Below, piece after piece: positions 1 to 18,278 of a DNA stretch of 64,000 nt. Each line of letters opens with the position of its first letter. Position 1 is the stretch's first letter. Both the position numbers and the translations under genes were made by a program. The notes beneath the pieces are model-generated. The model searched no databases and was not told where the DNA came from. It saw only the letters and a list, made by a program, of their open reading frames with translations. This stretch comes from Trueperaceae bacterium (lineage in GTDB: Bacteria; Deinococcota; Deinococci; Deinococcales; Trueperaceae): NCBI GenBank assembly GCA_965213925.1, contig OZ243927.1, forward strand, positions 3,968,001-4,032,000. The letters run 5' to 3'.

Positions 1-2544
1 CCCGCGCGAACCTCTCATCTCTACGCCTCCGATTTGGGTTTACCACTCGAGCAAGCGCTCCCTTGGGTTTGTGCTTTAGTAGGGCTTCACGACCTCGGCA
101 AAGCGAGTCCTGCTTTTCAACTCACTTCGGATAAGCGCGTCAAGTGGCGAGCTGGCGCAGAGCGGCTGGAAGAGAGCGGGTTGTTGTGGCGCTCGAAGCG
201 GCTCGACCCCGTGCCGCACGGCGTGGTGAGCCAGAAGCTGCTAGGGCGCGTTCTCGAGTCCTACGGTTGGGCAAGAAAAGCCGCTAAACACGCTGCGGAC
301 GCAGTCGGGGCGCATCACGGATTTAGAGCGACGGGAGATGAGCTTAAACGCATCGGCACAGTTGAGCTGGGTGATGAAATTTGGGACGAAGCTCGAGCAG
401 AACTGGTCGAAGCGTTATTGAAGGCTGCCGGGGTTTCTAAAGGCGCTCCGACCTGCGAACGCTTGGGCGGCGCAGCCTTCATGCGCCTCGCCGGACTCAC
501 GAGCTTTGCCGACTGGATAGGCTCCAACCCCGACTTCTTCGGTTACGAGCGAGGGGTCGGCGACCCGGCGGCGTACTATCAAAGGTCGTTGGGAAAGGCG
601 CGGCGGGCGCTCGAGACGATTGGCTGGGAAGCGCGTGAGCCGCTGCGCCCCGCGCTCATCACCTTTTCGGATGTTTTTCCCTTCGCACCGCGACCGTTGC
701 AACGCGTCTTGGAGGGAAAAGTCGAGGGACTTAGCGAGCCGACCCTCCTCATCGTCGAAGCGCCGATGGGCGAGGGCAAGACCGAGGCGGCGTTCTTCGC
801 GCATCTGCGTTTGCAAGCGCAAAGTGGACACCGAGGGATGTACGTTGCGCTGCCGACCCAAGCGACGGGCAACGCGATGTTCGAACGCACAAAGCAGTTT
901 TTAGGCGAGCAGGGACATGCGTCACCGCCTGACTTACAGCTTTTGCACGGCTCCGCCATCCTCGAGGAAAGCTACGCCAACATGCGCGTGAAAAACGTCG
1001 GGGGGAGCGGTGAAGCAGTCGTCGCTAGGGAGTGGTTCACCGCCAAAAAGCGTGCGCTTCTCTCGGAATATGGCGTTGGCACGGTGGACCAAGCGCTGCT
1101 GTCGGTGCTCAACGTCAAGCACCAGTTCATCCGCCTGTGGGGGCTCGGCAACCGCGTGGTTGTCATTGACGAGGTGCACGCCTACGACACGTATACCTCA
1201 CACCTTATCGAAACCCTCATACGCTGGCTGCACGCGCTGGGCTCGTCTGTCATCTTGATGAGCGCGACGCTCCCTAAAGCGCGAAGGGAGGCGCTTTTGG
1301 AGGCTTACGGCGCGAAGGATATACCGGACATTCCGTACCCTCGCCTTCTTAAAGTGAGCGGCGCAGAGGTCTCCGCTGAAACATTTGAGACCCGCGCGTT
1401 GCCCACGCTTACACTCAAGAAGACCGCGCAAGAGGTTGCGACTTTAGCAGACCTGCTCTTTCAGGAGACTGCCGAGGGTGGCTGCGCGGCGTGCATCCTC
1501 AACACGGTGCAGCGGGCGCAAGAGGTGTACTGCGAGTTGCGACTTCGCTTTGACGGCGACCTCATCCTCTTCCACGCTCGCTTCCCGGCTGAGGAGCGGC
1601 AAAAGCTCGAGCAAGAGGTACTGAGACGCTTCGGCAAAGACAGCGCTCACCGTCCGAAAAAGGCTATTTTAGTCGCCACGCAAGTTGTCGAGCAGAGCCT
1701 AGACGTGGACTTCGACGTGATGGTCAGCGACCTCGCGCCCGTCGATCTCATCTTGCAGCGTTCGGGGCGGCTCCATAGGCACGAAGGCAAACACGCCACG
1801 CGCCCTAAAAGCCTGAAAACGCCGAAGCTGTACGTGGCAGGGTTGGAGCACAGCGGGGACTTACCCGACCTGAGCACGCACCACTTTGACTACGTTTACG
1901 ACCCTTACATCCTCTTAAAAACCTGGCTCGCGCTGCGCGAAAAACGAACCATCACGCTACCAGACGATTTTGAACCTCTTATCGAAGTCGTCTATTCGGA
2001 CATCGAACTCGCTAACTTATCTTCGACTATTTCGGAGGCGCTTGAGGCGGCTCGAGAGGTCTCCACAAGAGAGATTGCTGAACATAAAACCGCAGCAAAA
2101 AGCGTGATTATCGGGCAACCCGAAACGCTTACGAAGAATAATCCGCCAGGTCATCAGGTGAGCGAAGACGATGAGAACCCTGAACTGCACCCCACGCTGA
2201 GAGCGCAGACTCGTCTCGGCGAAAAGAGCCTGAGCGTTATTCCGCTCTTCCTCAAAGATGAACAATTTCACATAACGCCAGAGGGCAACTCGGTTACGCT
2301 TTTGGACAAAGCGCCAACCTGGGATGAAGCGAAGCGGCTTTACCTTCGCAACGTGAAGTTGAGCCGAAAGGGAGTCGTCCATGAACTTTCAGAGCAGCCC
2401 GTACCCGAGGGGTGGGAAAAGCACCCCCTCCTCAGAAATTGCCGTCCTTTGATCTTAGAGAACGGTCAAACGCAGATTGGAAACACGGTTGTTAGCCTCG
2501 AGCCTGACTTGGGCGTCGTCTATAGGAAAGTTGATGACCTATAA
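1..2544 (+). CDS. cas3: Cas3 HD nuclease-helicase, type I-E (5' end lies before the window)
   Basis: Frame is open from base 1; HD motif HDLGKA, SFADWIGS, Walker A APMGEGKT, DEVH, SAT, QRSGRLHRH. Confidence 0.97.
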   Translation, partial: PARTSHLYASDLGLPLEQALPWVCALVGLHDLGKASPAFQLTSDKRVKWRAGAERLEESGLLWRSKRLDPVPHGVVSQKLLGRVLESYGWARKAAKHAADAVGAHHGFRATGDELKRIGTVELGDEIWDEARAELVEALLKAAGVSKGAPTCERLGGAAFMRLAGLTSFADWIGSNPDFFGYERGVGDPAAYYQRSLGKARRALETIGWEAREPLRPALITFSDVFPFAPRPLQRVLEGKVEGLSEPTLLIVEAPMGEGKTEAAFFAHLRLQAQSGHRGMYVALPTQATGNAMFERTKQFLGEQGHASPPDLQLLHGSAILEESYANMRVKNVGGSGEAVVAREWFTAKKRALLSEYGVGTVDQALLSVLNVKHQFIRLWGLGNRVVVIDEVHAYDTYTSHLIETLIRWLHALGSSVILMSATLPKARREALLEAYGAKDIPDIPYPRLLKVSGAEVSAETFETRALPTLTLKKTAQEVATLADLLFQETAEGGCAACILNTVQRAQEVYCELRLRFDGDLILFHARFPAEERQKLEQEVLRRFGKDSAHRPKKAILVATQVVEQSLDVDFDVMVSDLAPVDLILQRSGRLHRHEGKHATRPKSLKTPKLYVAGLEHSGDLPDLSTHHFDYVYDPYILLKTWLALREKRTITLPDDFEPLIEVVYSDIELANLSSTISEALEAAREVSTREIAEHKTAAKSVIIGQPETLTKNNPPGHQVSEDDENPELHPTLRAQTRLGEKSLSVIPLFLKDEQFHITPEGNSVTLLDKAPTWDEAKRLYLRNVKLSRKGVVHELSEQPVPEGWEKHPLLRNCRPLILENGQTQIGNTVVSLEPDLGVVYRKVDDL

Positions 2545-4054
2545 CTTTAACCTCACCACCGAGCCTTGGATTCCTGTACGTAATTTGGAGGACAGACTCG
2601 AGCTTCTCAGCTTAGAAGACGCGCTTCTAAGGGCGCATACGCTCCACCGTATCGAAGACCCCTCACCTCTCGTCGTGGCATCTTTACATCGGCTACTTCT
2701 CACTGTGCTGCACCGAGCGTTGAGAGGTCCTGAAGACCTCGAGCAAGCGGCGGACTGGTTTGAGGCGGGACGGCTTCCGGCTGAACCCACCAAGAAGTAT
2801 CTCGAAAGGTGGCGTGAGCGCTTTGACCTCTTTAGCGACACGCACCCTTTCTATCAAGTACCGGATTCTGAGGAGAAGGTTCAGCCTATCTCGAAGCTGG
2901 CGGCAGAACTCTCGAGCGGCACGAATAAACTCCTTTTCGACCACTCACAAGACGCGCAGCCGCTCGCCGTTTCTCCTGCTGTAAGCGCCCGCCTCCTCCT
3001 CGCCCGGCAGATGCTCGCCGTACCCGAAGGCGCAGGCTACAGCCCGAGTCCGTTGGGTGGCACAGCGGTCACGATTCCGCAAGGAGCCACCCTCTTCGAG
3101 ACACTATGCCTCAACCTCGTCACGTATGACGCAGACGAGACGGGCGACGCGCCAATTTGGGAAGAGGACGCGCCGACCTCAAAAAGTATCAAAGAGAACA
3201 AGGAGCGAACGGCGCTTGGGCTCACGAACCGCTACACCTGGCTCAGCCGCTCAGTGAGGCTCGAGCCAGAAAGAGATGAACGCGGCGAAACCGTCGTGCG
3301 CTGGCTGCGCTATACGACAGGCTTGAAGTTTCTACCCGGCGAAGTCTTCGTCGCTGACCCGATGCTCGCGTACCGCAGGGACGAGAAGCGGGGCAACTTG
3401 CCGCAGGGCTTTCGCAAGGGGCGCGGATTCTGGCGAGACTTTCTTGCCCTCGTGCCCAACTCAAACGAAAAGGGACTGCTCACGCCACCCGCGATTGACC
3501 ACGCGCTAGGCGTCTACGAAGCGTTGGACGTTCACAAGCCGCTACAGATAATGGTCTTGGGTCTCTCCAACGACAAAGCCAAAGTCGAGCTGTGGCGGAG
3601 CGAGGTCTTCTATCTTCCTGACGTGCTCACGCAGGACAATCGCGCCTACGAATTGGTGGAAGACGCCTTGCAAAGCGCCGAAGAAACAGGGCGAGAGCTT
3701 CGCAAGGCGGGCTTTGTGCTCGCGGCGAATCTGCTCACGACGGGCGAGCGTCAACCCGACCCCAATGATTCAGCTAGGCTGCGCGACAGCTTCCCGCTGG
3801 ACGCGGTGTACTGGTCGAGGCTCGAGACGCGCTTTCCAGCCTTTTTAGAGAGGTTCAAACCAGGTTATGACGCTGAGGCTCTTTTTGATGATTGGCTCGA
3901 GGAACTCGTCAGCGCGGCGCGTGATGCGTGGAAGAAAACGGCGCAGAGCGTTGGCAAGGACGCGAGAGCGTTGAGGGCACAACAGGAAGGGGACAGGGTG
4001 TTGAGCAGACATATCAATCAACTTCGCCGCGAATCTGGTGAGGTGGCGTCGTGA
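2534..4054 (+). CDS. cas8e: Cascade large subunit Cas8e (CasA/Cse1)
   Basis: N-terminal FNLTTEPWIPV and RFDLF..HPFYQ motifs; follows cas3; ATG 2534 chosen. Confidence 0.93.
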   Translation: MTYNFNLTTEPWIPVRNLEDRLELLSLEDALLRAHTLHRIEDPSPLVVASLHRLLLTVLHRALRGPEDLEQAADWFEAGRLPAEPTKKYLERWRERFDLFSDTHPFYQVPDSEEKVQPISKLAAELSSGTNKLLFDHSQDAQPLAVSPAVSARLLLARQMLAVPEGAGYSPSPLGGTAVTIPQGATLFETLCLNLVTYDADETGDAPIWEEDAPTSKSIKENKERTALGLTNRYTWLSRSVRLEPERDERGETVVRWLRYTTGLKFLPGEVFVADPMLAYRRDEKRGNLPQGFRKGRGFWRDFLALVPNSNEKGLLTPPAIDHALGVYEALDVHKPLQIMVLGLSNDKAKVELWRSEVFYLPDVLTQDNRAYELVEDALQSAEETGRELRKAGFVLAANLLTTGERQPDPNDSARLRDSFPLDAVYWSRLETRFPAFLERFKPGYDAEALFDDWLEELVSAARDAWKKTAQSVGKDARALRAQQEGDRVLSRHINQLRRESGEVAS

Positions 4055-4554
4055 CACTGAACCTTGCAGAAGATTTCGTGGCACATCTCAAGAAGCTCGC
4101 AGGCGAGAACGGAGGAAACCCGAACCGCGCCGCGCTCGCCGAGTTACGCCGAAGCTTGACACAAGCGCCAGGAACCTATGTGCGGGCGTATCGGTACGTG
4201 CCGCCTTACGTGCATAACCTCTTTCAAGAGCAGCGAGACGCCTACTTTCTTGTAGCGGGTCTCTTCGCAAGTCACGTAGATACGGCGTCAGATGAGTCTC
4301 TGGGCGCATCCATCAAAAAACTTTACAGAGAGAAAGATTCGTCAGAGAGCGTCGAAAAGCGCTTTATCACCCTCTTGGACGCGGATGAAACGCAGCTTCC
4401 CTACAGGCTCAGACAGATGGTGTCGCTACTCAAGAGCGAGGACATACCCGTTGACTACCTCAGCCTGCTTCAACATCTCACCCATTGGAGCCATCCAGAC
4501 CGCTGGGTGCAGCAGCGCTGGGCACGCGACTTTTACCGTTCAGCACACGGCTAA
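4051..4554 (+). CDS. cse2: Cascade small subunit Cas11 (CasB/Cse2)
   Basis: RAALAELRRSL, SVEKRF, VQQRWARDFY motifs. Confidence 0.93.
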   Translation: MTLNLAEDFVAHLKKLAGENGGNPNRAALAELRRSLTQAPGTYVRAYRYVPPYVHNLFQEQRDAYFLVAGLFASHVDTASDESLGASIKKLYREKDSSESVEKRFITLLDADETQLPYRLRQMVSLLKSEDIPVDYLSLLQHLTHWSHPDRWVQQRWARDFYRSAHG

Positions 4555-4574
4555 ATTAGGGCTAAGGAGACCCC

Positions 4575-5756
4575 ATGAACGCACTTTTGGAACTTCACAT
4601 CTTACAGAACTTCGCCCCCTCGCTCCTCAACCGCGACGACACCGGCTCCCCGAAAGATTGCGAATTCGGCGGCACCCGCCGTGGGCGCATCTCGAGCCAG
4701 TGCTTAAAACGCGCCGCCCGTGAGTACATTCGCGACAACGATTTGCTCGAGGAAAATGACATGGCGCTGCGAACGAAGCGGCTCACGCAGGCGTTGCAGG
4801 AAAAGCTTAAAGGGCGTGGACACGACAACGAAGAGAAGACCGAACAGGTCATCGAGGCGGCACTCGGCGGTTTGGGGCTCGCGCTGGACAAAAAGGGTGA
4901 GGAGGCGGAGGCGAAAACGCAGTACCTCCTCTTTATCGGCGTGCAAGAGGTGGAAAAACTCGCCGAGCTGATTCACGAACACTGGGACGACTTAGCGAAG
5001 GTCAGCGCGGCGGAGGATTCGGGGAAGAGCAAAAAGAAAACGGCGAAGGCGGCGGTGGATAAGGAAATCAGCAAAGCGATGATGGACAGTCTCGACGGAG
5101 GCAAGGCGGTAGACTTAGCACTTTTCGGGCGGATGCTCGCTGACCTCCCTCAGCGCAACCGCGACGCGGCGTGTCAGGTGGCGCACGCCCTCTCCACGAA
5201 CGCCGTCGCTAGAGAGTTCGACTTCTACACTGCTGTGGACGACCTCAAGCCGGACGACAACGCCGGAGCCGACATGCTGGGCACGGTTGAATTCAACTCC
5301 GCGTGCTACTACCGCTACGCCGCGCTAGACTTAGAGAAGCTGCTGGAGAACCTGCAAGGGGACAAGTCGTTGGCGCTTAAAGGGTTGGAGGCGTTCGTCC
5401 GGGCGAGCGTATTGGCGCTGCCGAGCGGCAAGCAAAACTCCTTCGCCGCGCACAACCCGCCGAGCTTCGTCGCCTTGACCGTGCGGCAGGGCGCTGCGCC
5501 GCGCAACCTTGCTAATGCGTTTGAAGTGCCCGTGCGTCCGAATAGCAGAGACAACGAGGGATTGAGCGAAGGCGCTTTACAGAAGCTCGAGGCGATGTGG
5601 CGGCGGCTCGACACGGTCTACAGCAACGGGAGCGTCAGCACCGCCTGTTTGAACCTCACGGATGCGAAATTGACCTATCTCGGCGAACATGTCAAAGAAT
5701 CCCTCGAGAGAGCGCTTAGCGACACCTTAAATGCGGCTGACCAGGTGATGGGCTAA
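4575..5756 (+). CDS. cas7: Cascade backbone Cas7 (CasC)
   Basis: [44 protein letters not shown]. Confidence 0.97.
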
Positions 5757-5758
5757 GC

Positions 5759-6403
5759 GTGACGACCCTTCTAATGCGCTTAGCCGGACCCATGCAATCG
5801 TGGGGCACGCGCAGCCGCTTCGACGAGCGCGACACCGGGCTCGAGCCCTCTAAAAGCGGCGTGCTCGGGCTTGTGTGCGCCGCGCTCGGGCGTGATCGAC
5901 ACGAAAGCGTGGCGGACCTCGCCGCGCTCAAGATGGGCGTGAGGGTAGACCATGAGGGCATCCTTAAATACGACTACCAAACCGCGCAAAACATCATCGG
6001 TGCGGATGGGAAAAAGATGCACGCTACGGCTGTGACTCAACGCTTCTACCTCTCTGACGCGGTCTTCCTCGTCGGGCTCGAGGGTGACGAAGAACTTTTA
6101 GAACGCATTCACCACGCACTTTACAATCCGCACTGGTTCCTCTCACTCGGGCGCAAATCATATCTGCCGAGCCGGAGCGTGTGGTTAGAAGATGGGCTGC
6201 GTGACGCGCCGCTTTGGGAAGCACTTTCCACCTATCCATCTTTGCTCGCTGAAGGCGACACGACCTGTCGCTACGTCCTCGAGAGTTCCGAAGGTGCACT
6301 GCGCACTGACGAACCCCTCGCGCCCTTCGCCGAGCGGCGTTTTGGCATTCGCTATGTTCAAACGAGGCAGGGAAAGGTGGGGAAACCCGATGTATCTCTC
6401 TAA
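5759..6403 (+). CDS. cas5: Cas5e (CasD)
   Basis: LRLAGPMQSWG..RDT..PSKSGVLGLVCAALG; LGRKS. Confidence 0.96.
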   Translation: MTTLLMRLAGPMQSWGTRSRFDERDTGLEPSKSGVLGLVCAALGRDRHESVADLAALKMGVRVDHEGILKYDYQTAQNIIGADGKKMHATAVTQRFYLSDAVFLVGLEGDEELLERIHHALYNPHWFLSLGRKSYLPSRSVWLEDGLRDAPLWEALSTYPSLLAEGDTTCRYVLESSEGALRTDEPLAPFAERRFGIRYVQTRQGKVGKPDVSL

Positions 6404-6971
6404 GCTCGCACCGAATCTTCGTAACCTTCAGGCGCGGCGTGACCTAGCTAATCCTTATGAGATGCACCGCACGTTGGCTCGAGCAGCCCATTCAGAAAGT
6501 GAGCGGTTGCTCTGGCGGCTCGAGGAGGACGAGCAGCCGACGCTGCTCGTCCAGACACTTTCAGAACCTGACTGGACGTTTCTTGACCCCGCGTATCTTC
6601 GTTGTCCTCCAAAAGCTAAAGCTGTGCACCTCAACTTCGCTAAAGGGCAGACGCTCCGCTTTCGCCTTAGGGCAAATCCAACCGTCAAACGTCAGGGAAA
6701 GCGCCAAGCGCTCTACGCTATTCAAGATCAGCATGAGTGGCTAAAACGCAAGGCTGAGCAGGCGAGCTTTAACATTTTGGGCGCAATGGCGCACCGTCAA
6801 GAGCAGTTGCGAGCGAAGCGCCAGGGCAAAACGGTCACGCTCTTCGCAGTTACGTTCGATGGGCATCTACAAGTCGCTGAGCCGAATTCCTTTCAAACTG
6901 CGCTTGAAAACGGGATAGGTTCAGCCAAAGGCTTCGGTATGGGTCTCCTCTCCCTCGCCCCGGACGCCTGA
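6390..6971 (+). CDS. cas6e: Cas6e crRNA endoribonuclease (CasE)
   Basis: MYLSKL, YEMHR, FRLRANP, Gly-rich GIGSAKGFGMGLL; ATG 6390. Confidence 0.96.
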   Translation: MYLSKLAPNLRNLQARRDLANPYEMHRTLARAAHSESERLLWRLEEDEQPTLLVQTLSEPDWTFLDPAYLRCPPKAKAVHLNFAKGQTLRFRLRANPTVKRQGKRQALYAIQDQHEWLKRKAEQASFNILGAMAHRQEQLRAKRQGKTVTLFAVTFDGHLQVAEPNSFQTALENGIGSAKGFGMGLLSLAPDA

Positions 6972-7954
6972 TGCCCTCCTTACGCAACCTCCGCGAACTC
7001 CCCAAGTTCCGCGACGGTCTCTCGTACCTCTACATCGAGCGCGGACGCATCGAGCAAGACGCTAAAGCTATCGCTTGGTACGGCGAAGAGGGCAAGGTGA
7101 GCGTACCCGCTGCCGCGCTGGGCGTCCTTATGCTCGGCCCCGGCACGAGCATTACGCACGAAGCCGTGAAAGCCCTAGCCGATAACGGCTGCCTCATCAA
7201 CTGGGTCGGCGAGGACAGCGTGCGCTTTTACGCGGGCGGCACGGGCGAGACGCGCAGCAGCGCCAACCTCATGCGCCAAGCGGAATACTGGGCAGACCCC
7301 GCCAAGCACCTTCGAGTCGTGCGGCGCATGTACGGGATGCGCTTTGAGGATGGGCTCGAGCCCGGACTAACCTTAGAGCAGATTCGCGGCAAGGAGGGCG
7401 TGCGGGTGCGCACCGTCTATGCCCGCATGAGTAAGGAAACGGGCGTTCCCTGGCACGGGCGCAGCTATAAGCGCGGCACGTGGGGCAGCGCCGACCCCAT
7501 CAACCGCGCCCTCTCCGCTGGAGCCGCTTGCGTTTACGGCGTTTGCCACGCCGCTATCGTTTCAGCAGGCTACAGCCCCGCACTTGGCTTTATCCACACA
7601 GGCAAGCAACTCTCCTTTGTCTACGACATCGCCGACCTCTACAAGATGGAGGTGCTCGTGCCCGCTGCGTTTAGACTCGTCGCTGAGTCAGACGAACATG
7701 TAGAGAGCCGCATCCGGCATTACCTCCGGGACGCCATGCGCGAGGCGCGAATGTTGGAGCGCGTCGTGAGCGACCTGCACAATCTCTTCAGCAGCGACGA
7801 AGGGAGCGGTGAACGCTTTGCCGAAGACGGCGCAGCACCGGGCGAACTGTGGGACCCGAGCGGCAACGTGGAAGGAGGGGTGAGCTATGGTGGTGATGAC
7901 GCTCGAGAAAGTACCGACGAGCCTACGCGGAGAACTGAGCCGCTGGATGGTTGA
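6971..7954 (+). CDS. cas1: Cas1 spacer integrase, type I-E
   Basis: LGPGTSITHEA, RGKEGVRVR, GFIHTG..SFVYDIADLYK. Confidence 0.97.
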   Translation: MPSLRNLRELPKFRDGLSYLYIERGRIEQDAKAIAWYGEEGKVSVPAAALGVLMLGPGTSITHEAVKALADNGCLINWVGEDSVRFYAGGTGETRSSANLMRQAEYWADPAKHLRVVRRMYGMRFEDGLEPGLTLEQIRGKEGVRVRTVYARMSKETGVPWHGRSYKRGTWGSADPINRALSAGAACVYGVCHAAIVSAGYSPALGFIHTGKQLSFVYDIADLYKMEVLVPAAFRLVAESDEHVESRIRHYLRDAMREARMLERVVSDLHNLFSSDEGSGERFAEDGAAPGELWDPSGNVEGGVSYGGDDARESTDEPTRRTEPLDG

Positions 7955-8240
7955 AGTCTCTACAGGCGTCTACGTCGGCAAACTGAGCGCTCTAGTGCGC
8001 GACCTCTTGTGGGAAAAGGTGATGGCGAGCAAACGCACCGGGCGCTGCTGTCAGGTCTACCGCACCAATACGGAGCAGGGTTTTGTCATTCGCATGGACG
8101 GCGACTCAGAACGGAGCGTGGTTGACCTAGACGGGTTACACTTAGTTGCAGTGAAGAACGCGGCGTGGGAAAAGATGTTCGTTGAGCCCGCTGAGGACTA
8201 TGAAAGCATGGATGGAGACATAGAGGGGTCAAAACGCTAG
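7887..8240 (+). CDS. cas2: Cas2, type I-E
   Basis: LRGELSRWMVEVSTGVYVG..RDLLW..TEQGF..VDLDGL; overlaps cas1 3' end. Confidence 0.95.
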   Translation: MVVMTLEKVPTSLRGELSRWMVEVSTGVYVGKLSALVRDLLWEKVMASKRTGRCCQVYRTNTEQGFVIRMDGDSERSVVDLDGLHLVAVKNAAWEKMFVEPAEDYESMDGDIEGSKR

Positions 8241-8260
8241 TTTTGCCGTCTGGGTCAAGT

Positions 8261-9119
8261 CTATTCCCCACAGGCGTGGGGATGAACCGTCCTGCGGCTT
8301 GCTATTCCCCACAGGCGTGGGGATGAACCGCTCGAGTTCCGCGCTGCCTAGAACCCTTGCCCTATTCCCCACAGGCGTGGGGATGAACCGACTGTCAAGT
8401 TCACCGTGCCTTTCGACCTGTCCTATTCCCCACAGGCGTGGGGATGAACCGCCGCAGCCCGACATCATCGGGCGCAACCACTTCTATTCCCCACAGGCGT
8501 GGGGATGAACCGAGGCGATCCTTCTCTATCTGCATGTCAAAGACTATTCCCCACAGGCGTGGGGATGAACCGAGTCGAAAGATGAGTTGGCGCTCGAGCT
8601 TATCCTATTCCCCACAGGCGTGGGGATGAACCGGTCTTTTACTGCGCGGCTACCTAATCGGCGTTCTATTCCCCACAGGCGTGGGGATGAACCGCTCGAG
8701 CCTCTGACTCCCGTCCAGCAGCAAAGCTATTCCCCACAGGCGTGGGGATGAACCGCACGCGGGCGAAAAAGCCCTGCGTCCCTTTGGCTATTCCCCACAG
8801 GCGTGGGGATGAACCGACGCCGGGAATGATTTTTTCAAGTCCACTTACCTATTCCCCACAGGCGTGGGGATGAACCGCAAGCGTAAAACCAGGTGCGACG
8901 GTACTTCCCCTATTCCCCACAGGCGTGGGGATGAACCGGGCTCGTTGCGGTTTTGGATAGCCTCTACAACCTATTCCCCACAGGCGTGGGGATGAACCGT
9001 AGATGAGCGCAAGGACGGTAGGAACCAACCCTATTCCCCACAGGCGTGGGGATGAACCGGGCGGCGCAGCCCTCACCCTCTACTCCCTCCCTATTCCCTA
9101 CAGGCGTGGGGATGAACCG
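8261..9119 (+). CRISPR. Type I-E CRISPR array, 15 repeats and 14 spacers
   Basis: 29-nt repeat CTATTCCCCACAGGCGTGGGGATGAACCG at 8261, 8302, 8362, 8423, 8484, 8544, 8605, 8666, 8727, 8788, 8849, 8910, 8971, 9031, 9091 (last has one C>T). Spacers are 31-32 nt except spacer 1 (12 nt). Confidence 0.99.
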
Positions 9120-10153
9120 CAGAGATGCGAAGCACCTCGAGTCAAACAACAAACATTGCTAATATTTCGCTAACTGGTATTCGTCCAATACTCGCACCCC
9201 TCCCACCCCTCGAGGAACAAAAACGCATCGTCGTCAAAGTGGACGAGCTTATGGGGCTTATAGACACGCTCGAGGCGCAAGAACGCGCCAAAAGGGACGC
9301 CCGCATGAGGTTCGGCGGTGCGGCGCTAGGCTCTCTCCTAAGCGCAGAGGACGCGGACACGTCTGCGTGGAGCTGGCGGCGCGTGCGGGACAACTTCGAC
9401 CTCTTGTGCGCTGCGCCGGGGAGCGTCGCGGAGTTGCGCAAGGCGGTGTTGCAACTGGCGGTGCAGGGGAAGCTCGTGCCCCAAGACACAAGTGATACAA
9501 ATTGGAAAGAAGTGTCTTTACAAACTTTACTACGAGAAAATTCTCGTAACGGGCTTTCTTCGCGTCCTTCCGATAGCCCTCCAGGTGTCCCGATTTTAAG
9601 AATCAGCGCTGCCACCTCACGCCATGACGCAATAGTAGACGAAAGCGACTACAAATATCTTGAAGTGGATGAAGCTGACCTGAAAAAATACGCCTTAGAG
9701 TCGGACGATTTGTTAGCGTGTCGATTCAACGGCAACCTGCATTATGTAGGAAGGTTTGCCCTTTATTTGAACTACTCGGATGAAACTCGCCTCTATCCAG
9801 ATAAACTCATTAGATTTAGAGTTGACGACACCAAAGTGATACCAAAATATGTCTGTCTAGCTATGAATAGCTCTGAAGGTAGGAAGAAAATAGAATCATA
9901 TTGCGCTACTACTGCGGGCAATATAGGTATAAGCGCGACCAATCTAAAAACTGTCATGATTCCCCTCCCGCCCCTCAACGAACAAAAACGCATCGTCGCT
10001 AAGGTGGATGAGCTTATGGGGCTGATTGACGCGCTGGAGGAGGGGCTAAAGCGGGCGCAGGGGGACGCGGAGCGGCTTTTGGAGGCTGCTGTCCGTAGCC
10101 TCCTCACGCGGAACCGCGCAGCGTCCGCTCGCCGTAGTCACGCCGATGCTTAG
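9120..10153 (+). pseudogene. hsdS: Type I restriction-modification specificity subunit HsdS, 5'-truncated (end of TRD1, central conserved region, TRD2, C-terminal helix)
   Basis: Two PLPPL(E/N)EQKRIV.KVDELM repeats and LQLAVQGKLVPQD; most of TRD1 is missing; no hsdM/hsdR in the window. Confidence 0.85.
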
Positions 10154-10870
10154 AGCAAAATCGGTTGACGCGCCCTTCTCCGAGTGAGAGGTGAAGGGGT
10201 TTTGGGGTGTAGCGCGGCGTCGCGCCCGCGTCAAAACGGATTTTCACCTCTTTTGATAATGTTTCTCTCAGAGAAACGTGCGGCGAGCGTCCAAATGCCT
10301 TCAAAAACACGCCGACCCAAATAAAAAGACACCTCTCCTTAATACTTTAGACGTTCTTTAGCAAAGTCAAAATCTTTTCGTTTTCTAAAGCGTAGCGTTC
10401 TTTAGGCGCTCTTTAGCGAGGCTTATCTTCTTAACGCTTCTTTGAGCTTGGAGGTTGAGGCTACACTGAGCCCTAGCGCCAAGCGTAAACGCTCGGACTA
10501 GAGCGCGATGTGGTGAGCAGTAACGCTTCCCGTCGCCCATCGGCGTCAGCCACAGTAGCAGCCGCTTGTGCGACCTCCCCCTCTGCTACGACCCAACGGT
10601 AGGGGGTTGGTGAAATCACCGCGAAAGCGCACTGCTGTCTAAGGTCTCAACCTCTTACCAACTGCGTCTCGCGAACAGGGGTGCCTTTATCGGACACAGC
10701 TTCTTGCTGCCACCGCGTCAAGGACTTGGGCGAGTATTCTCTAGCCCCCTGCGGGCTTGCCACTATAGTAGAGGTCTGGCTCCCTAAAAGCTGTGAAACT
10801 TTCAGGGAGGTTTCAATCCCAAGTACCGCAATTCAGAATTCTGTAACACTGTTTTATATATGCTAAAAAA

Positions 10871-11026
10871 ATGAAAACTGTCGCGTTCTTAATAGTAATG
10901 ATGGCTTGCGGATTCCTCGGAATGTCAATAGGTTTGAGCGCTGGATTTGGTGAGCTAGGTTTAGTATTGGGCTTGAGCGTAGGAGCATGGATCAACAAAA
11001 GCGCTAAGTTTGACAATCAAATATAA
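10871..11026 (+). CDS. Small hydrophobic protein (51 aa), not in the ORF track
   Basis: MKTVAFLIVMMACGFLGMSIGLSAGFGELGLVLGLSVGAWINKSAKFDNQI*; two Gly-rich hydrophobic segments. Confidence 0.45.
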   Translation: MKTVAFLIVMMACGFLGMSIGLSAGFGELGLVLGLSVGAWINKSAKFDNQI

Positions 11027-11324
11027 ATTGCACACGTCCATTTACTAACTGTTGAAGATGACGTACTGGACGTGCTCGAGCGTCCGGGTAAGCCTCAAGC
11101 ATATGCCGTTGCTATGCCGTTTGTACTCGTGAAAGCAGGCTTGGAGTTCGCTTAGGTATCGGTCTCTCGACCACTTACTGAGGTCCTCATTATCTACAGC
11201 TTCGAGCTTCCGGGAAGCGTAAACAGCGCCGGTCCGGGTTCGGCACGGGTCCTTTGCTCTTTCCCAAATTAAATCTAGCTATATCGCTGCTAAAACAGGT
11301 AAGCTCCAGCGCAGTCCGCTGAGC

Positions 11325-11816
11325 TTATAACCCTAGCGCCTCTCGCATCAGCCCAGCCTCGGGAACGTAGCCGGGCATAACCTGGAGGATTTGCCCTTTC
11401 TGGTCTACCACCATAAACGCAGGTACGCCTTGCAAGGACGCCTCGTCATAGAACGCCTCGTCCGGGTCGAGGTAGGCGGTGTCCGTGAAGCTCGAGGCGA
11501 AGTCCGCGCAACTCTCGCGGCTGTCTGCGCCGACGACGACAGCCATAGGGATGCCGTCACTCAACAACTCGGCGCTGAGCGTCTGAATCATCGGTCTCGC
11601 CGCGTGGCAGTGTGGACACCAGGGCGCGACGTAAACGACGAGGCAGCGCCGAGCCTCGCAGCGAACCGCGCTCTCTTGCTCGGGCTGCTCAGCCGCCGAG
11701 AAGCGCTCTAAGGTCAAGGTGGGTAGCATCTGCTGACCTGTCCATGAAGCGGGCAGCGGGGCAAAAAGTAAGGCGAAAGCGGCGAGCACGGAGACGGCGG
11801 CGATAGCGCGTAGCAT
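11325..11816 (-). CDS. Exported thioredoxin-fold (TlpA-like) oxidoreductase
   Basis: Signal-like N-terminus, WCPHC, GVP cis-Pro loop. Confidence 0.8.
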   Translation of the reverse strand: MLRAIAAVSVLAAFALLFAPLPASWTGQQMLPTLTLERFSAAEQPEQESAVRCEARRCLVVYVAPWCPHCHAARPMIQTLSAELLSDGIPMAVVVGADSRESCADFASSFTDTAYLDPDEAFYDEASLQGVPAFMVVDQKGQILQVMPGYVPEAGLMREALGL

Positions 11817-11931
11817 ACCGAGCAGGGTAGCGCAGCCCGTCTCACAGAAACCTTACAGCGCGGATAGAGTAAGACTTTTGTAAGAGCCTCTCCGCTAAGC
11901 TCCAGGTCGAAATTCTTTTGGAGGATGCGAT

Positions 11932-12309
11932 GTGAACAAACTTTTTTCGATGCAGGGTAGGTTAGGTAGAGGCAATTACTTCTTGATCTCAGTCGTGGCG
12001 TTTCTCATTTATATCTTGGTCCTGTTTTTCGTTGGGCTGGCACTAGGCACTGCTTTGTCCGAGGAAGAGCTGACGATGTTTTCTAACGTTCTTATGATTC
12101 CCTATATCATCGTCATTGCGGTGGCGAAGGTTAAGCGCCTGCACGACCTTGACCGCCCCGGCGCTCACTACTGGCTTCAGCTCATTCCGATATACGGGCT
12201 CTACCTCGAGCTTCTTCTATTGCTTAAACCAGGCACAGAGGGAGAGAACCGCTACGGTCCTGGCTCTACGCAGCCACAGACAGTGAGCGACGAGGTATTG
12301 GCGGTCTAA
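11932..12309 (+). CDS. DUF805 family membrane protein
   Basis: GRLGRGNY, VKRLHDLDRPG, GTEGENRYGP. Confidence 0.9.
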   Translation: MNKLFSMQGRLGRGNYFLISVVAFLIYILVLFFVGLALGTALSEEELTMFSNVLMIPYIIVIAVAKVKRLHDLDRPGAHYWLQLIPIYGLYLELLLLLKPGTEGENRYGPGSTQPQTVSDEVLAV

Positions 12310-12365
12310 GTCAGCGTTTTAGCCACTGCTGAAGCGGCGGCTAAAGACAACGTATGTGGAGACGA

Positions 12366-12392
12366 GCCTGCTCTTAAAGAGCGGGCCTTTTT
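12366..12392 (+). terminator. Intrinsic terminator after DUF805 gene
   Basis: GCCTGCTCT-TAA-AGAGCGGGC followed by a T run. Confidence 0.6.
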
Positions 12393-12881
12393 GATGGCTA
12401 GGGCTGTGACGCTTCGTAAAGTGATGAGAACTCGCGTTGAAGAAACCTCCGTATGTGGCAGTGATCATTAGCTGCTCTAAATGGTATTTGAGCAACTCGC
12501 TTAACGCGAACAGGAACTCTACATTTCCCCATTCATCCTCCTTCTAACCTTCTACTCATAATAGAGATATGGCATATTTCACACTCAAAATTATTGACGC
12601 ACGAATGCCTCGAAAGCGTATCTAAAATGGTGTCAGAAATCGGAATATACAGAATAAACCATGTATATACGTCCAGCATCGCTTAGAAATTCTTGACTCT
12701 TCAACTATAACAAAGCTAAAAAGAGTGGCTTAGGTTCATTACGTTTCTCTCGGAGAAACTTACGTTTCTGACGGGTTTTATGAGAGGTCGCCTGCGCATC
12801 TTATGCGGCGTAAGAGGTGCTTTAAGGTGGAATGACTAAGGAGGAGGGAGTAAGAAGCAAACGAAAGGAGATAGAGATATT

Positions 12882-13103
12882 ATGCAATTTACAGAACGTC
12901 AAGATACGGACAAAAAAGGTCGGTCGTCGGAGAATGTGAGGCTGACGTATACCGTCGAAGAGGTAGCCGAGGCATTAGGCGTCGGCAAGAACACAGCCTA
13001 TGAGCTGGTGCGTTCTCAGCGTCTCAGAGCGGTCAAAATCGGCAGGCGCTACCTCATCCCTCAACAAGAGGTGGGGGAGTTTCTCGAGCGTGAGGCGGCG
13101 TAA
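12882..13103 (+). CDS. Excisionase-like HTH (HTH_17) protein
   Basis: TYTVEEVAEALGVGKNTAYELVRSQRLRAVKIGRRYLIP. Confidence 0.88.
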   Translation: MQFTERQDTDKKGRSSENVRLTYTVEEVAEALGVGKNTAYELVRSQRLRAVKIGRRYLIPQQEVGEFLEREAA

Positions 13104-13199
13104 TACCTGCCTCACACGCAACACCTTGTGCAACCTGTAAAAAGCACGTAATTTCTTAAACCCAAGACAATTCATTCAACCTTTGGAGGTCATACATCT

Positions 13200-15101
13200 A
13201 TGCACCTTAAAGACTCTATTGCCCAAAAGATGGCACAGCAGTTTAGCGACGAGTTTACCCGGCATCCCGCCGCCCACATCGAGTGCGTCTCTAACGGCGC
13301 TGAGGGGAAAAAGGTAGTCACGAGGCATTATCCGCTCTCGGAGAAACGCATCTTGGAGCATCTGAACAGTTCAGACGCGAACGGTCAAAAGGGGGTTGGA
13401 GCGCGGGGCGTCTCCTTCACCTTCCCAGTGGAGGGCAGCGCTGGGAACGGAAAAAGTAAGTGGTACACCAACCGCATTGTTTTTGATTTCGACGACTTAG
13501 TCTTAGACTGGCTGAGCGACCTTGCCCACACGCTCGAGGGCAACGGTATCTACATCTACCTCACCAACGGCACGACGGGGCGCGGCGCACACGTCCATCT
13601 TCCTTTAGAAATCTCTATCCCGCAGCACGAGGCGTACAAGCTGGCAGAAGGATGTGCGGCGTTCTTCGCCGAGCAGGAGTTACCGCGCCCAGAGCTTTTC
13701 CCCTCACGCTCTCATCGTGAGAGCAAGGCTATTCTGCTTCCTTATCGCGGGGCAGCGTCTAGCAAGCACTTAGGATACGGCTATAACCCGCTGCTCGACC
13801 CCACCGAACTCACCCCCATCCCTATCCAGAATTTAGCGCAGCTCAACCGCACCTCCCTCGATGACTTACGGGAGTTCGTCAAAGCGGTCTCTAAACCCGC
13901 GCCGCGCGTGCGCTCAAAAGGGGCGCGGCGTCCGAGCACGCGACATAGCCACGCCGACCCAAATGCCGCGTGGCACGCCGAGCTAGAGCGTGTCGCCCCA
14001 GCGTGGCAGAAGGAGAAGCGGCAATACCTGACGCTCGCTCTGAGCCGCTACGGTCTTTACGACTTGGGGTTGCCTCTCGAGCAGGTTCAGAAGGATGTGC
14101 TCGAGCTGGCACGGCAAAAAGGCGACATCGAAATCAGAGAGAGGTCGAAAGCCATTACGGGAACGCGGGAGAAGATGCAGCGCGGGGAGCCTGTTAGCCG
14201 CAACAACTGGTACAAGAAGGCGGGGCTCGAGCCTCCGGGAAAGCCTGCGCCGAGCCAGGATGTTCTGGACCTCCTAACCGCCCTGGAGAACTTCCTTTTT
14301 GAACATCTGTGGCAGTGGAAACGCAGCGCGGCTCTTACCGATCTCCGGGTGTTACGGACGCTTATCTACGTCGCTCAGCAGCACGGCATCCTTCACGCTG
14401 ACGGCGTCGAGGTCTCTATCAGCCGACGTGAGCTGGCAGAGAGGGCAGGTGTAACCCTGAGTACGGCAAACTCTTCTACCTCGAGATTAAAGGCAAAGGG
14501 GCTCGTTCAGACGCAGCGAGCGGCATATAAAGGTGACGCAGACTCGGTCATTTTGATTTTGCCGCAAATTGACCGCTCCAACATTCTTAACGTTTCTCTG
14601 GAGAAACGTCCAAACACGAGAGGTTTACAGAGTTGTTCTTCGGAGAATCCCTACAAGGGGGGTAGAAAGAGTGTTCTAAGTAAAGGTGTTTGGCATAGCA
14701 TCGCGTGCCCTGTTCTTTTCAGTCAAAAGGGGCTCGGCATGTTGGCTGGACTTATCCTCGACGTGCTTATCCATCTCGGCGGACGTGCCCCTCACGCTCA
14801 GCTCGCCGAGGCGACAGGACGTAAAAGGCGGCAGCTCGACAAACCACTCAAGCGCCTCGTAGACTCCGGCTTGGTTCTCCGGGAAGGTCAGGAATACGTG
14901 CTGCCTGAGAACTTGCCTGCGGCGCTAAAGCGTGCTGCGGAGGTGACAGGTGCGCTCGAGGTGCAGACCAAGCGCAAAGCCTTACATGAGGTGGGACGCG
15001 CCAAGTATGGCGAGTTTTTAGAAAGGCAGCGGGCGGAACGTGAAGCGAGTAACAAGTCTAGGGATAGTGAGTCCGAAGTGGAACTTGCTGATGTGGCTTG
15101 A
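13200..15101 (+). CDS. Replication protein: AEP-type primase domain, PriCT-like helical domain and two winged-helix domains
   Basis: VFDFDD, TTGRGAHVH, ELFP..ILLP (AEP-like); SRRELAERAGVTLSTA and LAEATGRKRRQLDKPLKRLVDSGLV (HTH-like). Confidence 0.65.
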   Translation: MHLKDSIAQKMAQQFSDEFTRHPAAHIECVSNGAEGKKVVTRHYPLSEKRILEHLNSSDANGQKGVGARGVSFTFPVEGSAGNGKSKWYTNRIVFDFDDLVLDWLSDLAHTLEGNGIYIYLTNGTTGRGAHVHLPLEISIPQHEAYKLAEGCAAFFAEQELPRPELFPSRSHRESKAILLPYRGAASSKHLGYGYNPLLDPTELTPIPIQNLAQLNRTSLDDLREFVKAVSKPAPRVRSKGARRPSTRHSHADPNAAWHAELERVAPAWQKEKRQYLTLALSRYGLYDLGLPLEQVQKDVLELARQKGDIEIRERSKAITGTREKMQRGEPVSRNNWYKKAGLEPPGKPAPSQDVLDLLTALENFLFEHLWQWKRSAALTDLRVLRTLIYVAQQHGILHADGVEVSISRRELAERAGVTLSTANSSTSRLKAKGLVQTQRAAYKGDADSVILILPQIDRSNILNVSLEKRPNTRGLQSCSSENPYKGGRKSVLSKGVWHSIACPVLFSQKGLGMLAGLILDVLIHLGGRAPHAQLAEATGRKRRQLDKPLKRLVDSGLVLREGQEYVLPENLPAALKRAAEVTGALEVQTKRKALHEVGRAKYGEFLERQRAEREASNKSRDSESEVELADVA

Positions 15102-15396
15102 GGTCTATTCTGTATATGCAAATAAATATACTTTTAGTAAGCTCGCGTCTTTAGCTTCAAGAGGATAGACGCAGCGAGCGAAGCCCGCTGTCATAGGTAA
15201 ATGCCCATTTGACATGTACTTTAAGAATGAGCGGTCTCGAGAGGTGCACAGTGAAGACCTAAACCATTTTTATGAAGCAGTTCAACATCACTTTTTGGGG
15301 AGCTTTTGCTTGCGCCGCAGTATTGTGCCGAGATAATAGAGAGTCAAATTGCGTTTGGGGTCCATGCCCCCCCTACACCCAAAGACATTAAGAGGA

Positions 15397-15417
15397 GAGC
15401 GGGGACGAACCCCGCTC
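15397..15417 (-). terminator. Hairpin after the leftward small-ORF operon
   Basis: GAGCGGGG-ACGAA-CCCCGCTC. Confidence 0.5.
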
Positions 15418-15419
15418 AC

Positions 15420-15755
15420 TCACCCGCGCAGTCGTGACGCATGAATCTGCAAGTAGATGTGGTGCCATTTGGCTTCGGCAATCTCGACCTCACTCCGCGC
15501 ACGGCTGAGTTCTACCTCCACGTTGTGAAGCCAGTCGTGCAAAGAACCGTTCGCGCGATATACAGCAGCATTGTGTTCAATTGTGCTGTTCCACTTGGCA
15601 CCTCTTCTAACGTGAAAGGAAGTATATTGATACCAAGCATACTCGCATACGTGAACCGCCTTAGTATGTTCTATGAGCGCTGTACGCAACCTTGTTTTAG
15701 CTTTGGTGAGCGCGTCTGTGGCTTGCCTAAGTTGTTGGTCAAGAGGGTCGCTCAT
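15420..15755 (-). CDS. Hypothetical helical protein of the element
   Basis: 111-aa ORF with ATGA overlap to the upstream ORF and a hairpin downstream. Confidence 0.6.
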   Translation of the reverse strand: MSDPLDQQLRQATDALTKAKTRLRTALIEHTKAVHVCEYAWYQYTSFHVRRGAKWNSTIEHNAAVYRANGSLHDWLHNVEVELSRARSEVEIAEAKWHHIYLQIHASRLRG

Positions 15756-15967
15756 GCGAGCACCTTCGCTAAGACTCGCGTAGCCGCTTTGGCCGTTGCG
15801 TGGCGGCTTGGCTCGGTGCCGTAAGAACCGAGTACGCGCCGCTGAGTAAGGTCAAGGCGCTGCTTGAGTGTGCCAGCTTGTTGACCGTTGCGTAGGGGCG
15901 TGTAGCGCTTAGGAGAGTGCCAGGTATGACGCACTCCCGACAATCTACTGAGTTTGATATGCTACAT
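15752..15967 (-). pseudogene. Small ORF whose RBS-linked ATG (15967) is followed immediately by TAG
   Basis: Minus strand GAAAGGA-TTCAAC-ATG-TAG, in frame with the 15752..15943 ORF. Confidence 0.4.
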
Positions 15968-16038
15968 GTTGAATCCTTTCAACTGAGAGATTCCCAAAGG
16001 GCTCGAGGCTTTCCAGGCGTAAGCCCTTTGGGTAGCAT

Positions 16039-16084
16039 ACTCTATCACTTGTGATATATATAAGTCAACTACTTGTGATATACT
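16039..16084. promoter_or_regulatory. Divergent promoter region with operator sites
   Basis: Palindrome TATCAC-TT-GTGATA (16043-16056); direct repeat ACTTGTGATATA (16047, 16071); rightward TGnTATACT; leftward TTGACT-18-TAGAGT. Confidence 0.6.
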
Positions 16085-16090
16085 AGGGGT

Positions 16091-16342
16091 ATGGGGAGAG
16101 TTGTGTGGAAATTGCGAGCGTATCTAGGTGAACGAAACATCAAGCCGAGGGCGGTTGAGAACGAAGCGATAGAACTGGGCTATAGCTTTGGACGGAATAT
16201 GATCTACAGGCTGCTCAGAGATGATGGTCCTGTCAACGTTAATAGAGACACCTTAGCCGCTCTTATCGGGGCGCTGAGGAGTCTCACGGGACGCAAGGTG
16301 AAGGTGCAGGATTTGTTGGAGTACGAGGAAGGAAGCGACTAG
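16091..16342 (+). CDS. Cro/C1-type HTH regulator (HTH_26-like), probably leaderless
   Basis: WKLRAYL...DTLAALIGALRSLTG..V.VQDLLEY; ATG 6 nt after TATACT. Confidence 0.75.
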   Translation: MGRVVWKLRAYLGERNIKPRAVENEAIELGYSFGRNMIYRLLRDDGPVNVNRDTLAALIGALRSLTGRKVKVQDLLEYEEGSD

Positions 16343-16375
16343 CTCGAGGGGGACGAGACCGTTTAGGAGAACATT

Positions 16376-17518
16376 GTGGCGAGACGACGCGGTAAAGGTG
16401 AAGGCAGTATTTTTAAGCGCAAAGATGGCGTATGGCAAGGCGCAGTAACCGTCGGTTACACTGAGGAGGGCAAACAGAAGCGCAAGACGGAATATGGCAA
16501 GACTCAAGCCGAAGTGCGAGGTAAGATTGACGAGATTAAGCATCAGCTCGCAAGCGGTACATTCACTGATTCAAACTTCACGGTCAAAACGTATTTAGAG
16601 CGTTGGTTAGCGGAAAAGGCGCGTCAGGTTGAGAAGAGTACGATGGACTCCTACGAACGCCTCACGCGGCTTCACATCGTCCCACGTATCGGGAGAGTGC
16701 CGCTCGTCAAACTCACTGCTTTGCAGGTACAAAGCATGATGCGCGAGGTCTCAGAGGTCGCAGGCGTGCGCACCGCAAACGCCTGCCGCACTTTGCTCTA
16801 TAGCGTCCTCAAACAAGCAATGCGCTGGCAACTCGTGTCACGCAATGTCGCGGAGGCAGTAGACCCAATCAAGAAAGCCTCGCAAGAGATGGCGCTGTGG
16901 ACACCTGATGAGGCGGTACGCTTTTTAGACACAGCAAGCGGACATAGACTATACGCGGCGTTCTATTTAGCGATGTCTACAGGGTTAAGGCGCGGCGAGC
17001 TGTTGGGTTTACACTGGTCGGACCTCGAGGGGAACGTTCTCCACATTCGGCAGCAGCTCACTTACCGCGAGGGCACATTCGTCTTCAAGCAGACGAAGAC
17101 CGAACGCGGAAAGCGTCGCGTCGCCATCTCGGAGGATGTACTTGACGTGCTAGCGGACCACCGCAAGCGTCAGGATTCCGAAAAGCGATTCTTAGGCGAA
17201 GCGTGGGCAGATACCGACTTAGTTTTCACCTCAGAGGTAGGGACACCTATTCACCCTCGCAACTTCGACAGGACCTGGAAGCAGCTCAAGACGAAAGCAG
17301 GCGTGCCACAAGTAAGACTTCACGACCTGCGCCACCTTCACGTCTCGCTTCTAGTAAAGCAGGGCTTTGACCCCGCTACCATCGCCGACCGCGTGGGGCA
17401 TACTGACCCTGCGTTCACGTTGCGCAAGTACACCCACATGTTCGAAGAGCAGCGTCAAGCCGCCGCTATCGGCGTCAATGACCTGTTGAAAAGTAGGAAT
17501 CCCGGTGATGCAAACTGA
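16376..17518 (+). CDS. int: Tyrosine recombinase/integrase
   Basis: RRGKGEGSI N-terminus; TGLRRGELLGL, HDLRH, VGH, catalytic Y in YTH. Confidence 0.96.
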   Translation: MARRRGKGEGSIFKRKDGVWQGAVTVGYTEEGKQKRKTEYGKTQAEVRGKIDEIKHQLASGTFTDSNFTVKTYLERWLAEKARQVEKSTMDSYERLTRLHIVPRIGRVPLVKLTALQVQSMMREVSEVAGVRTANACRTLLYSVLKQAMRWQLVSRNVAEAVDPIKKASQEMALWTPDEAVRFLDTASGHRLYAAFYLAMSTGLRRGELLGLHWSDLEGNVLHIRQQLTYREGTFVFKQTKTERGKRRVAISEDVLDVLADHRKRQDSEKRFLGEAWADTDLVFTSEVGTPIHPRNFDRTWKQLKTKAGVPQVRLHDLRHLHVSLLVKQGFDPATIADRVGHTDPAFTLRKYTHMFEEQRQAAAIGVNDLLKSRNPGDAN

Positions 17519-17559
17519 ACCCTGTAGCTGTAGTTAAGCTGTAAATGGTGCTGAATGAG

Positions 17560-17590
17560 AAAGCCCCTAGCTAGGCTAGGGGTCTTTTTC
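17560..17590. terminator. Hairpin between convergent int and tRNA
   Basis: CCCCTAGC-TAG-GCTAGGGG with A/T tracts on the flanks. Confidence 0.65.
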
Positions 17591-17612
17591 TCTGTGCTAG
17601 ACGGGCTTTTCC

Positions 17613-17688
17613 TGGTGGAGCTGGGGGGATTCGAACCCCCGACCTCGTGAGTGCGATTCACGCGCGCTCCCAACTGCGCCACAGCCCC
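17613..17688 (-). tRNA. tRNA-Ala(CGC)
   Basis: 76 nt GGGGCTG...CAGCTCCACCA; G3:U70 pair; anticodon arm CGTGA-ATCGCAC-TCACG; TTCGAAT T-loop; encoded CCA. Confidence 0.96.
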
Positions 17689-18220: not shown

Positions 18221-18278
18221 AGCACTTTGCTATGCCCGGTACCTACATCGACTTCTTATGGGGTCAAGGGAGCAGAGT

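Follow-up and report, generated by a model that had tools for sequence, protein, structure and literature searches.

A type I-E CRISPR array ending inside an hsdS gene in a Trueperaceae genome: a probable scar of recombination between spacer and protospacer

Recombination between a CRISPR spacer and its target has been described in staphylococci, where a phage recombined with the CRISPR locus (Varble et al. 2019, Nat Microbiol, cited in the review PMC8616872). The locus analysed in this work, as we read it, is similar in that identity of spacer and target joins array DNA to mobile DNA. According to the available part of that review, the staphylococcal event occurs in trans with an invading phage and the locus is transduced, whereas here we deal with a chromosomal scar in a natural genome, of type I-E, where the PAM has gone together with the left arm of the adjoining island. 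The portion of Watson 2018 (PMC5821089) consulted contains no description of spacer-target recombination. Escape from chromosomal self-targeting through loss or remodelling of islands is also known (Vercoe et al. 2013, PMC3630108; review PMC6990116), and the likeness lies in a type I system whose action on a resident island favours deletions by which the target is lost. The escape routes named in the accessible parts of these two papers are precise excision, microhomology joining, repeat-repeat loss of the spacer, and mutation of PAM or cas genes; merging of spacer and protospacer, with an array ending in the target gene, is not among them.

Single repeats in or against genes of mobile elements are found as well in solitary repeat units and mini-arrays, as covered by the same part of PMC8616872. 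Unlike those, the repeat presented here closes a full array which has its leader and stands next to a complete cas operon, and no anti-CRISPR role is implied. The half-HsdS enzymes EcoR124I(delta50), the EcoDXXI truncations and NgoAV (PMC3874165) share with our hsdS fragment one complete TRD with flanking conserved helices, but they belong to family IC and have their own HsdM, whereas the fragment is EcoEI-like, judging from the HsdR of its relatives, and has no cognate HsdM or HsdR. Among the papers listed by our search of the open-access literature, none dealt with natural chromosomal scars in which an array ends in the target gene.

The DNA analysed (the window; 64,000 nucleotides, G000:C1:3968001-4032000) comes from a genome, G000, of 4.75 Mb in six contigs with an assembly completeness of 96.9%; the contig carrying the junction measures 4.58 Mb. 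The features around the junction are:

1..8240, + strand: type I-E cas operon (casA, casB, cas7, cas5, cas6e, cas1e, cas2e; the start of cas3 lies just before the window), identified with NCBIfam
8201..8260, + strand: short leader, which overlaps the 3' end of cas2 and whose left limit is approximate; its motif also stands before other arrays
8261..9119, + strand: CRISPR array of 15 repeats of 29 nt and 14 spacers, from the repeat/spacer layout
9091..9119, + strand: terminal repeat 15, C>T at 9099, its final G common to an hsdS Ala codon
9119..10153, + strand: 5'-truncated hsdS (the stub) with the last 26 TRD1 codons, central conserved region, TRD2 and C-terminal helix; 209 codons fewer than the intact HsdS protein P0102
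9120..9151, + strand: putative merged spacer/protospacer of 32 nt at the end of TRD1, placed by spacer length and junction position

All eight type I-E cas genes were matched with open frames, so the operon is complete. The 29-nt hairpin repeat, spacers mostly of 32 nt and a leader at the cas2 side are those of a type I-E array; the first spacer has 12 nt only and the remainder 31-32 nt. Since the leader motif recurs before the first repeat of a second array upstream in G000 and before the arrays of the sister species G001, we take the left end of the array as its leader end, which places the hsdS junction at the trailer end. The C>T change in repeat 15 preserves the hairpin as a G-U pair. No terminator-like site was found on the + strand 3' of the array, in agreement with the original prediction made from the window alone. 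Both sister species have a short spacer next to the leader, of 12 nt in G000 (window 8290-8301) and of 24 nt in G001 (L014:2107-2130). A gene which we take, by its motif, for a WYL-type regulator lies 5' of the upstream array in G000 (C1:3963431-3967100) and likewise in G001. Between the G000 upstream array and cas3, within the same interval, there are genes and fragments which by their motifs are presumably of toxin-antitoxin type.

Repeat 15 abuts HsdS codon 210 (numbering of the intact, 577-residue P0102). Its last base, G9119, is at the same time the first base of an Ala codon, from which the HsdS frame runs to 10153; the 32 nt 3' of the repeat and the hsdS DNA are single copy in the G000 genome. 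The claim that the last repeat is joined straight onto the middle of hsdS is thus confirmed and the junction is real. The original prediction had made its case dependent on hsdS homology starting at the repeat end and on reads crossing the junction; homology does begin exactly there, and spanning sequence exists. Four sequencing runs (X1-X4) were compared, all as contigs, with X1 and X2 derived from one sample, perhaps the source sample. In X2, a contig of 196 nt at depth 2 covers 9031-9226 with 0 differences, reaching 89 and 107 nt to either side of the junction, and its depth equals that of the TRD2 contig of the same strain. Run X1 has zero cover at 9084-9190, though its TRD2 depth is 10.9. 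This gap counts against the junction, though holes in cover prove nothing, and contig cleaning could have dropped a thin link between deep nodes. Several strains are present in the sample, and these have different spacers and hsdS alleles. Read support is positive, yet thin. Neither the pre-deletion array (repeat, hsdS spacer, repeat) nor a reciprocal circle appeared among the contig matches listed for the four runs.

The stub has one Pfam Methylase_S domain (residues 146-311). Its closest HsdS relatives are mostly of 500-580 aa, and the alignment is confined to their 3' part. The best match to stub residues 1-40 was P0102, encoded on a contig of 4672 nt, with 93% identity and the junction at its residue 210; it departs from the window allele at a few residues near the junction. 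A DNA counterpart came from run X3 (another study, 2019), in which a contig of 1102 nt matches 9119-9256 at 137/138 nt, the match ending at 9119. At a distance of 523 nt beyond, this contig resembles 9393-9472, a block repeated at the N-terminus of intact HsdS, and the spacing of 523 nt to the N-terminal conserved block is exactly that of P0102. It follows that an intact, near-identical hsdS allele exists which shares the final G of the repeat.

In P0102 the residue directly before the junction Ala is Gln, so the lost bases together with the last G of the repeat should read A[A/G]G. Deduced in this way from a protein, the motif would represent the I-E PAM at the junction; by chance it is expected at ~4% of positions, the background for AAG being 2.1-2.5%. 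Gln codons of the stub are CAA in 7/9 cases, and the distant Gln-Ala homologues, with 3 CAA vs 6 CAG, carry little information. The DNA of a near-identical intact gene was not found: searches of metagenome and genome contigs with degenerate patterns, and of viral contigs with an exact 18-mer, returned none. P0102 itself gave at best 44% over near-full-length matches in metagenomes, and its TRD1 gave 3 distant matches in 363 genomes of the order and at most 62% in genome contigs. Comparison with relatives, proposed originally for recognition of an AAG-like PAM, has therefore given the motif at the level of protein and not of DNA.

AAG is the PAM reported for type I-E of Thermus in the accessible part of PMC6452258, and the G of the PAM becomes the final repeat base according to that of PMC8482600. 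Our own search for the PAM through protospacers gave no usable protospacer, from 219 and then from 3247 spacers. Repeats in the arrays of the order end in G in 2979/3173 cases. Where a repeat ends in A, the following base is G in 35/65 vs a background of 31% (P=1e-4; 4/6 within the family), an excess which fits a one-base slip on a PAM ending in AG and lends indirect support. A spacer length of 32 nt was found in 2790/3288 spacers surveyed.

To the right, the stub opens what the original prediction, in its account of the deletion, had missed: its place in an integrase island at tRNA-Ala without a far att site. The DNA at 9120-17612 is an 8.4-kb remnant of this island, starting at the stub and ending at the tRNA gene, with the following features:

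11325-11816, - strand: thioredoxin-like cargo gene (domain search)
11932-12309, + strand: DUF805 cargo gene (domain search)
12882-13103, + strand: excisionase-like HTH_17 gene (Pfam, PHROGs)
13200-15101, + strand: replication-initiator-like HTH protein (Pfam, PHROGs; the replication label is weak, E 5e-6)
16376..17518, + strand: tyrosine integrase of the island (domain searches)
17522..17612, no strand: direct repeats and a hairpin between integrase and tRNA, the repeats called arm-like from position and conservation
17613..17688, - strand: tRNA-Ala(CGC), the integration site

An integrase adjoining the 3' end of the tRNA together with an excisionase is the arrangement of a tRNA-integrated island. 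Integrase, arm-like repeats and hairpin are colinear with elements at tRNA-Ala in G134, G137, G138 and G139, and the integrase region has 66-72% DNA identity to theirs. In G138 and G139 the far boundary carries a second copy, 45 bp long, of the tRNA 3' end. It is missing in G000, which we read as loss by deletion, and the island as a remnant; besides the far att site, it lacks hsdR, hsdM and the first 209 hsdS codons. In the sister species G001 the last array repeat is perfect and joined to the homologue of 17551, before the tRNA hairpin (L014:2438-2530; G001:C4:4350437-4350530). This array end may be an empty site or a second deletion, and both readings stand. As the G001 array abuts the tRNA-Ala hairpin, array and integration site were neighbours, and the DNA deleted in G000 need have held nothing essential, only spacers and island DNA. 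We also asked whether the junction in G001 could be another event precise to the PAM; the homologous bases are GTG (G000) or AGG (G002), and this was not established. G002 gave no match to the array or to cas1. Just past tRNA-Ala, at 18258-20279 of the window, there is a gene for a secreted-looking beta-helix protein of 673 aa with QANQTN repeats.

The junction is probably a scar, formed when a CRISPR spacer and its protospacer on the adjacent island recombined. Of the explanations offered originally, a self-spacer recombining with its protospacer is thus the one best supported, by the flush homology and the implied A[A/G]G, with the reservation that one-ended joining by Cas1-Cas2 gives the same sequence. 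The spacer would have been acquired by Cas1-Cas2 from the island hsdS, next to an A[A/G]G PAM, and the G of this PAM would have become the last base of the preceding repeat. Acquisition could have occurred with the island resident or in an earlier encounter before its integration, the sequence being compatible with both. Spacer and protospacer would then have formed a direct repeat of 33 bp a few kb apart in a cell targeting itself. Recombination or annealing of the two copies would have removed the older spacers, trailer, far att site, left arm of the island, hsdR, hsdM, 5' part of hsdS and first two bases of the PAM. In the merged copy a repeat would stand in place of the PAM and no repeat would follow, by which the status of target would be lost, and the island would be left unable to excise. 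What is left of hsdS is in all likelihood a pseudogene. Degradation by Cas3 proceeds towards the PAM side, and it is this side that has been lost here. DdrB was not found in G000, with a positive control, so the annealing route of Deinococcus cannot be invoked. The mutated terminal repeat resembles an old trailer repeat and counts against the recombination reading.

We looked for similar junctions across the order, where I-E cas1 was present in 88/363 genomes; 87 loci were scanned and 84 had repeats. Genome G104, which is unpublished, enters into the search tallies only. Where the protospacer lies upstream of the array, the expected product is an AAG-protospacer joined to a repeat. There were 123 array starts without an upstream repeat, 113 leader-like and 10 leaderless. 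AAG was found 31-33 nt before the repeat in 3/10 leaderless starts (G001, G044, G303) vs 0/113 leader-like ones (binomial P=0.007, background 0.04), in a test which was post hoc, two of the three matches having been seen before its definition, and with a leader cut-off chosen by the author. A cruder leader filter gave 3/29 vs 0/111, not above chance for the 29. The other readable junctions have a motif other than AAG: GTG/AGG at the G001 array end, ACG at the left one in G044, and none at 31-33 nt for an orphan repeat in G000. A gap of 2269 bp in L229, presumably an insertion sequence by its translation motif, was not counted as a scar and was kept among the ten leaderless starts.

Pfam and PHROGs were searched with 137 open frames from 85 array ends, and a recognisable gene was cut at 4/85: the hsdS stub, the end of the G000 upstream array and two in G303, one of the latter breaking inside a repeat. 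A PlsY-like frame after the L210 array was ambiguous and not counted as cut. Genes cut by a repeat are therefore recurrent but uncommon, and outside G000 the family-verified cases are those of G303 only. The upstream array of G000 ends ~2.8 kb 5' of the window (C1:3965217-3965470; L071:502-755), where its last repeat runs into the final 75 codons of a gene for phage head morphogenesis, the relatives of which have ~310 aa; this repeat ends in A followed by G, which would fit a one-base slip on an AAG PAM. In G303 (C108; L194:15568-17600), 1310 bp of Mu-like head genes stand between two repeats with both ends cut, AAG lies 31 nt before the right repeat, and behind the last repeat, which is broken, there is a further head-morphogenesis gene without its head. 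In G044 (C2; L103:8836-9775), 882 bp between two orphan repeats are 82% like DNA of G005 that is free of repeats; the right repeat, with AAG 33 nt before it, cuts a frame which continues in G005 and whose start, by its motif, we take to be that of a GIY-YIG nuclease.

How the junction could have arisen otherwise has to be weighed against these data. An assembly mis-join through a true 32-nt spacer matching an hsdS elsewhere, one of the original explanations, might be read from the X1 gap beside well-covered TRD2, from a sole spanning contig of depth 2, perhaps from the source sample itself, and from the several strains in the sample with their other spacers and hsdS alleles. We consider it very improbable: the X2 contig crosses the junction without a difference and at the depth of the strain's TRD2 contig, the junction lies within the 4.58-Mb contig, and a continuation of the array, the 5' part of hsdS, cognate hsdM/hsdR and a far att site were all looked for elsewhere in the 96.9%-complete assembly and not found. 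For an ordinary deletion, by microhomology joining or island decay, which would have run by chance from an old trailer-repeat end into hsdS with the PAM-like motif accidental, the terminal repeat offers an argument: it is mutated, and trailer repeats, though normally stable, are often polymorphic as far as the available part of PMC8047081 tells. The G001 array likewise ends flush on non-CRISPR DNA, imprecise island deletions with short microhomology follow type I self-targeting (PMC3630108, in its accessible part), and the junction was selected for study because it is flush. Such a deletion would nevertheless need its left break at one exact base and its right break at an A[AG]G site (~4% of positions), with a single shared G as the sole microhomology, and repeat-precise cuts were seen again in G000 and G303; we regard it as unlikely.

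The remaining explanation is one-ended integration by Cas1-Cas2. Here the chromosome would have broken, one end would have been trimmed back to the hsdS PAM and, with the island still attached to it, joined to the spacer side of the repeat, repair would have dropped the intervening DNA, and a complete spacer would never have existed. It predicts an identical junction, with the PAM-derived G and everything 3' of the repeat lost, it is compatible with the intact Cas1 and Cas2 of G000, and the kilobase inserts between two repeats (970, 1086, 882 and 1310 bp) are readable as oversized integrations. The mirror junctions with AAG 31-33 nt before a leaderless repeat are not what it yields, and no paper on rearrangements of this kind was found in the open-access literature. 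Cas1-Cas2 of E. coli starts integration at the leader side and works with a fixed, measured length, which also counts against it. The aberrant Cas1-Cas2 integration proposed originally hence accounts for the sequence and leaves the mirror junctions unexplained, and we hold it for quite unlikely.

A separate matter is whether the stub has been retained as a working single-TRD HsdS, transcribed from the leader, freed by Cas6, dimerising and recognising a symmetric site, as the original prediction supposed. Its frame is open over 344 codons with ATGs at 9125 and 9251, no terminator-like site stands between leader and stub, so that read-through from the leader is possible, and half-S homodimers do exist (PMC3874165 and the part of PMC6158711 available). 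They have been reported for family IC only (PMC3874165), whereas the partner HsdR of the stub's relatives in G001 and G009 carries EcoEI_R_C and is thus EcoEI-like, not of family IC. EcoEI_R_C marks family IB. The stub has no cognate HsdM or HsdR in G000, where the best long matches to the G001 proteins reach just 25-30% (HsdM) and 22% (HsdR) identity. The absence of the 5' part of hsdS and of hsdM/hsdR, as stated originally, consequently holds for the cognate genes; type I R-M parts of other families are present in the assembly (C1:2621-2627 kb, C3, C5), and the genome, searched for an intact hsdS, hsdM/hsdR or a second array, does have the second array upstream. Of the 11 differences from G001 in the central conserved region, 8 alter the encoded residue. 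Eight of these 11 positions are likewise different in every one of the four runs, and six of the eight are non-synonymous. These substitutions would fit relaxed selection. The identity of 9119-9233 with the X3 allele speaks against decay, and the DNA downstream differs by ~4% among strains, so allelic diversity could explain part of them. From sequence comparison a working half-HsdS appears unlikely, and the full chain of events from leader transcription to symmetric specificity extremely so; the broken hsdS is probably not a new enzyme. The hsdRMS of the stub's family in G001 is located elsewhere in the genome, beside Tn7-like genes, with a different TRD1. In that hsdS (L011:15100-17652), TRD2 is interrupted by an IS4/5-like element, of which a second copy is found in the neighbouring Tn7-like cluster. 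Contig C6 of G000 is 79-93% like several places on C1 and may come from another strain.

What happens in nature to self-targeting spacers is deduced for the most part from those which survive, and a scar of the present kind escapes usual surveys because its spacer has neither a second repeat nor a PAM. If the recombination reading holds, such events leave a base-precise signature, either a repeat end on the G of the PAM in an intact gene or a PAM and ~32 nt before a leaderless repeat, and arrays truncate themselves and immobilise neighbouring islands. Tentatively, and with less confidence than for the single scar, we suggest that spacer-target recombination may recur in nature and be detectable from sequence, as a means by which type I-E arrays edit the DNA around them, neutralising self-targeting, locking in or stripping adjacent islands (here an R-M system and an att site were removed) and leaving kilobases of mobile DNA between repeats. 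Should this be true, junctions of a repeat with a headless gene and of a PAM-protospacer with an orphan repeat would be reciprocal products of one reaction, countable across genomes.

Some further repeats were noticed in the course of the survey. The orphan repeat of G000 (G000:C1:3966150-3966300), 970 bp after the upstream array, has no AAG at 31-33 nt. It is preceded by what may be the 3' terminus of a minus-strand HU-like gene (a weak match, E 0.025) and followed by a spacer of 26-27 nt and a degenerate repeat; the short spacer has no clear target. Single degenerate repeats stand near the I-E operons of the order at L233:6528, L240:6468, L247:6466, L187:6217 and L105:12467 and in L189, L192 and L101; in appearance they are similar to repeat-derived regulatory RNAs. 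Several of them have a -10-like hexamer just upstream and flanks that are alike across genomes.
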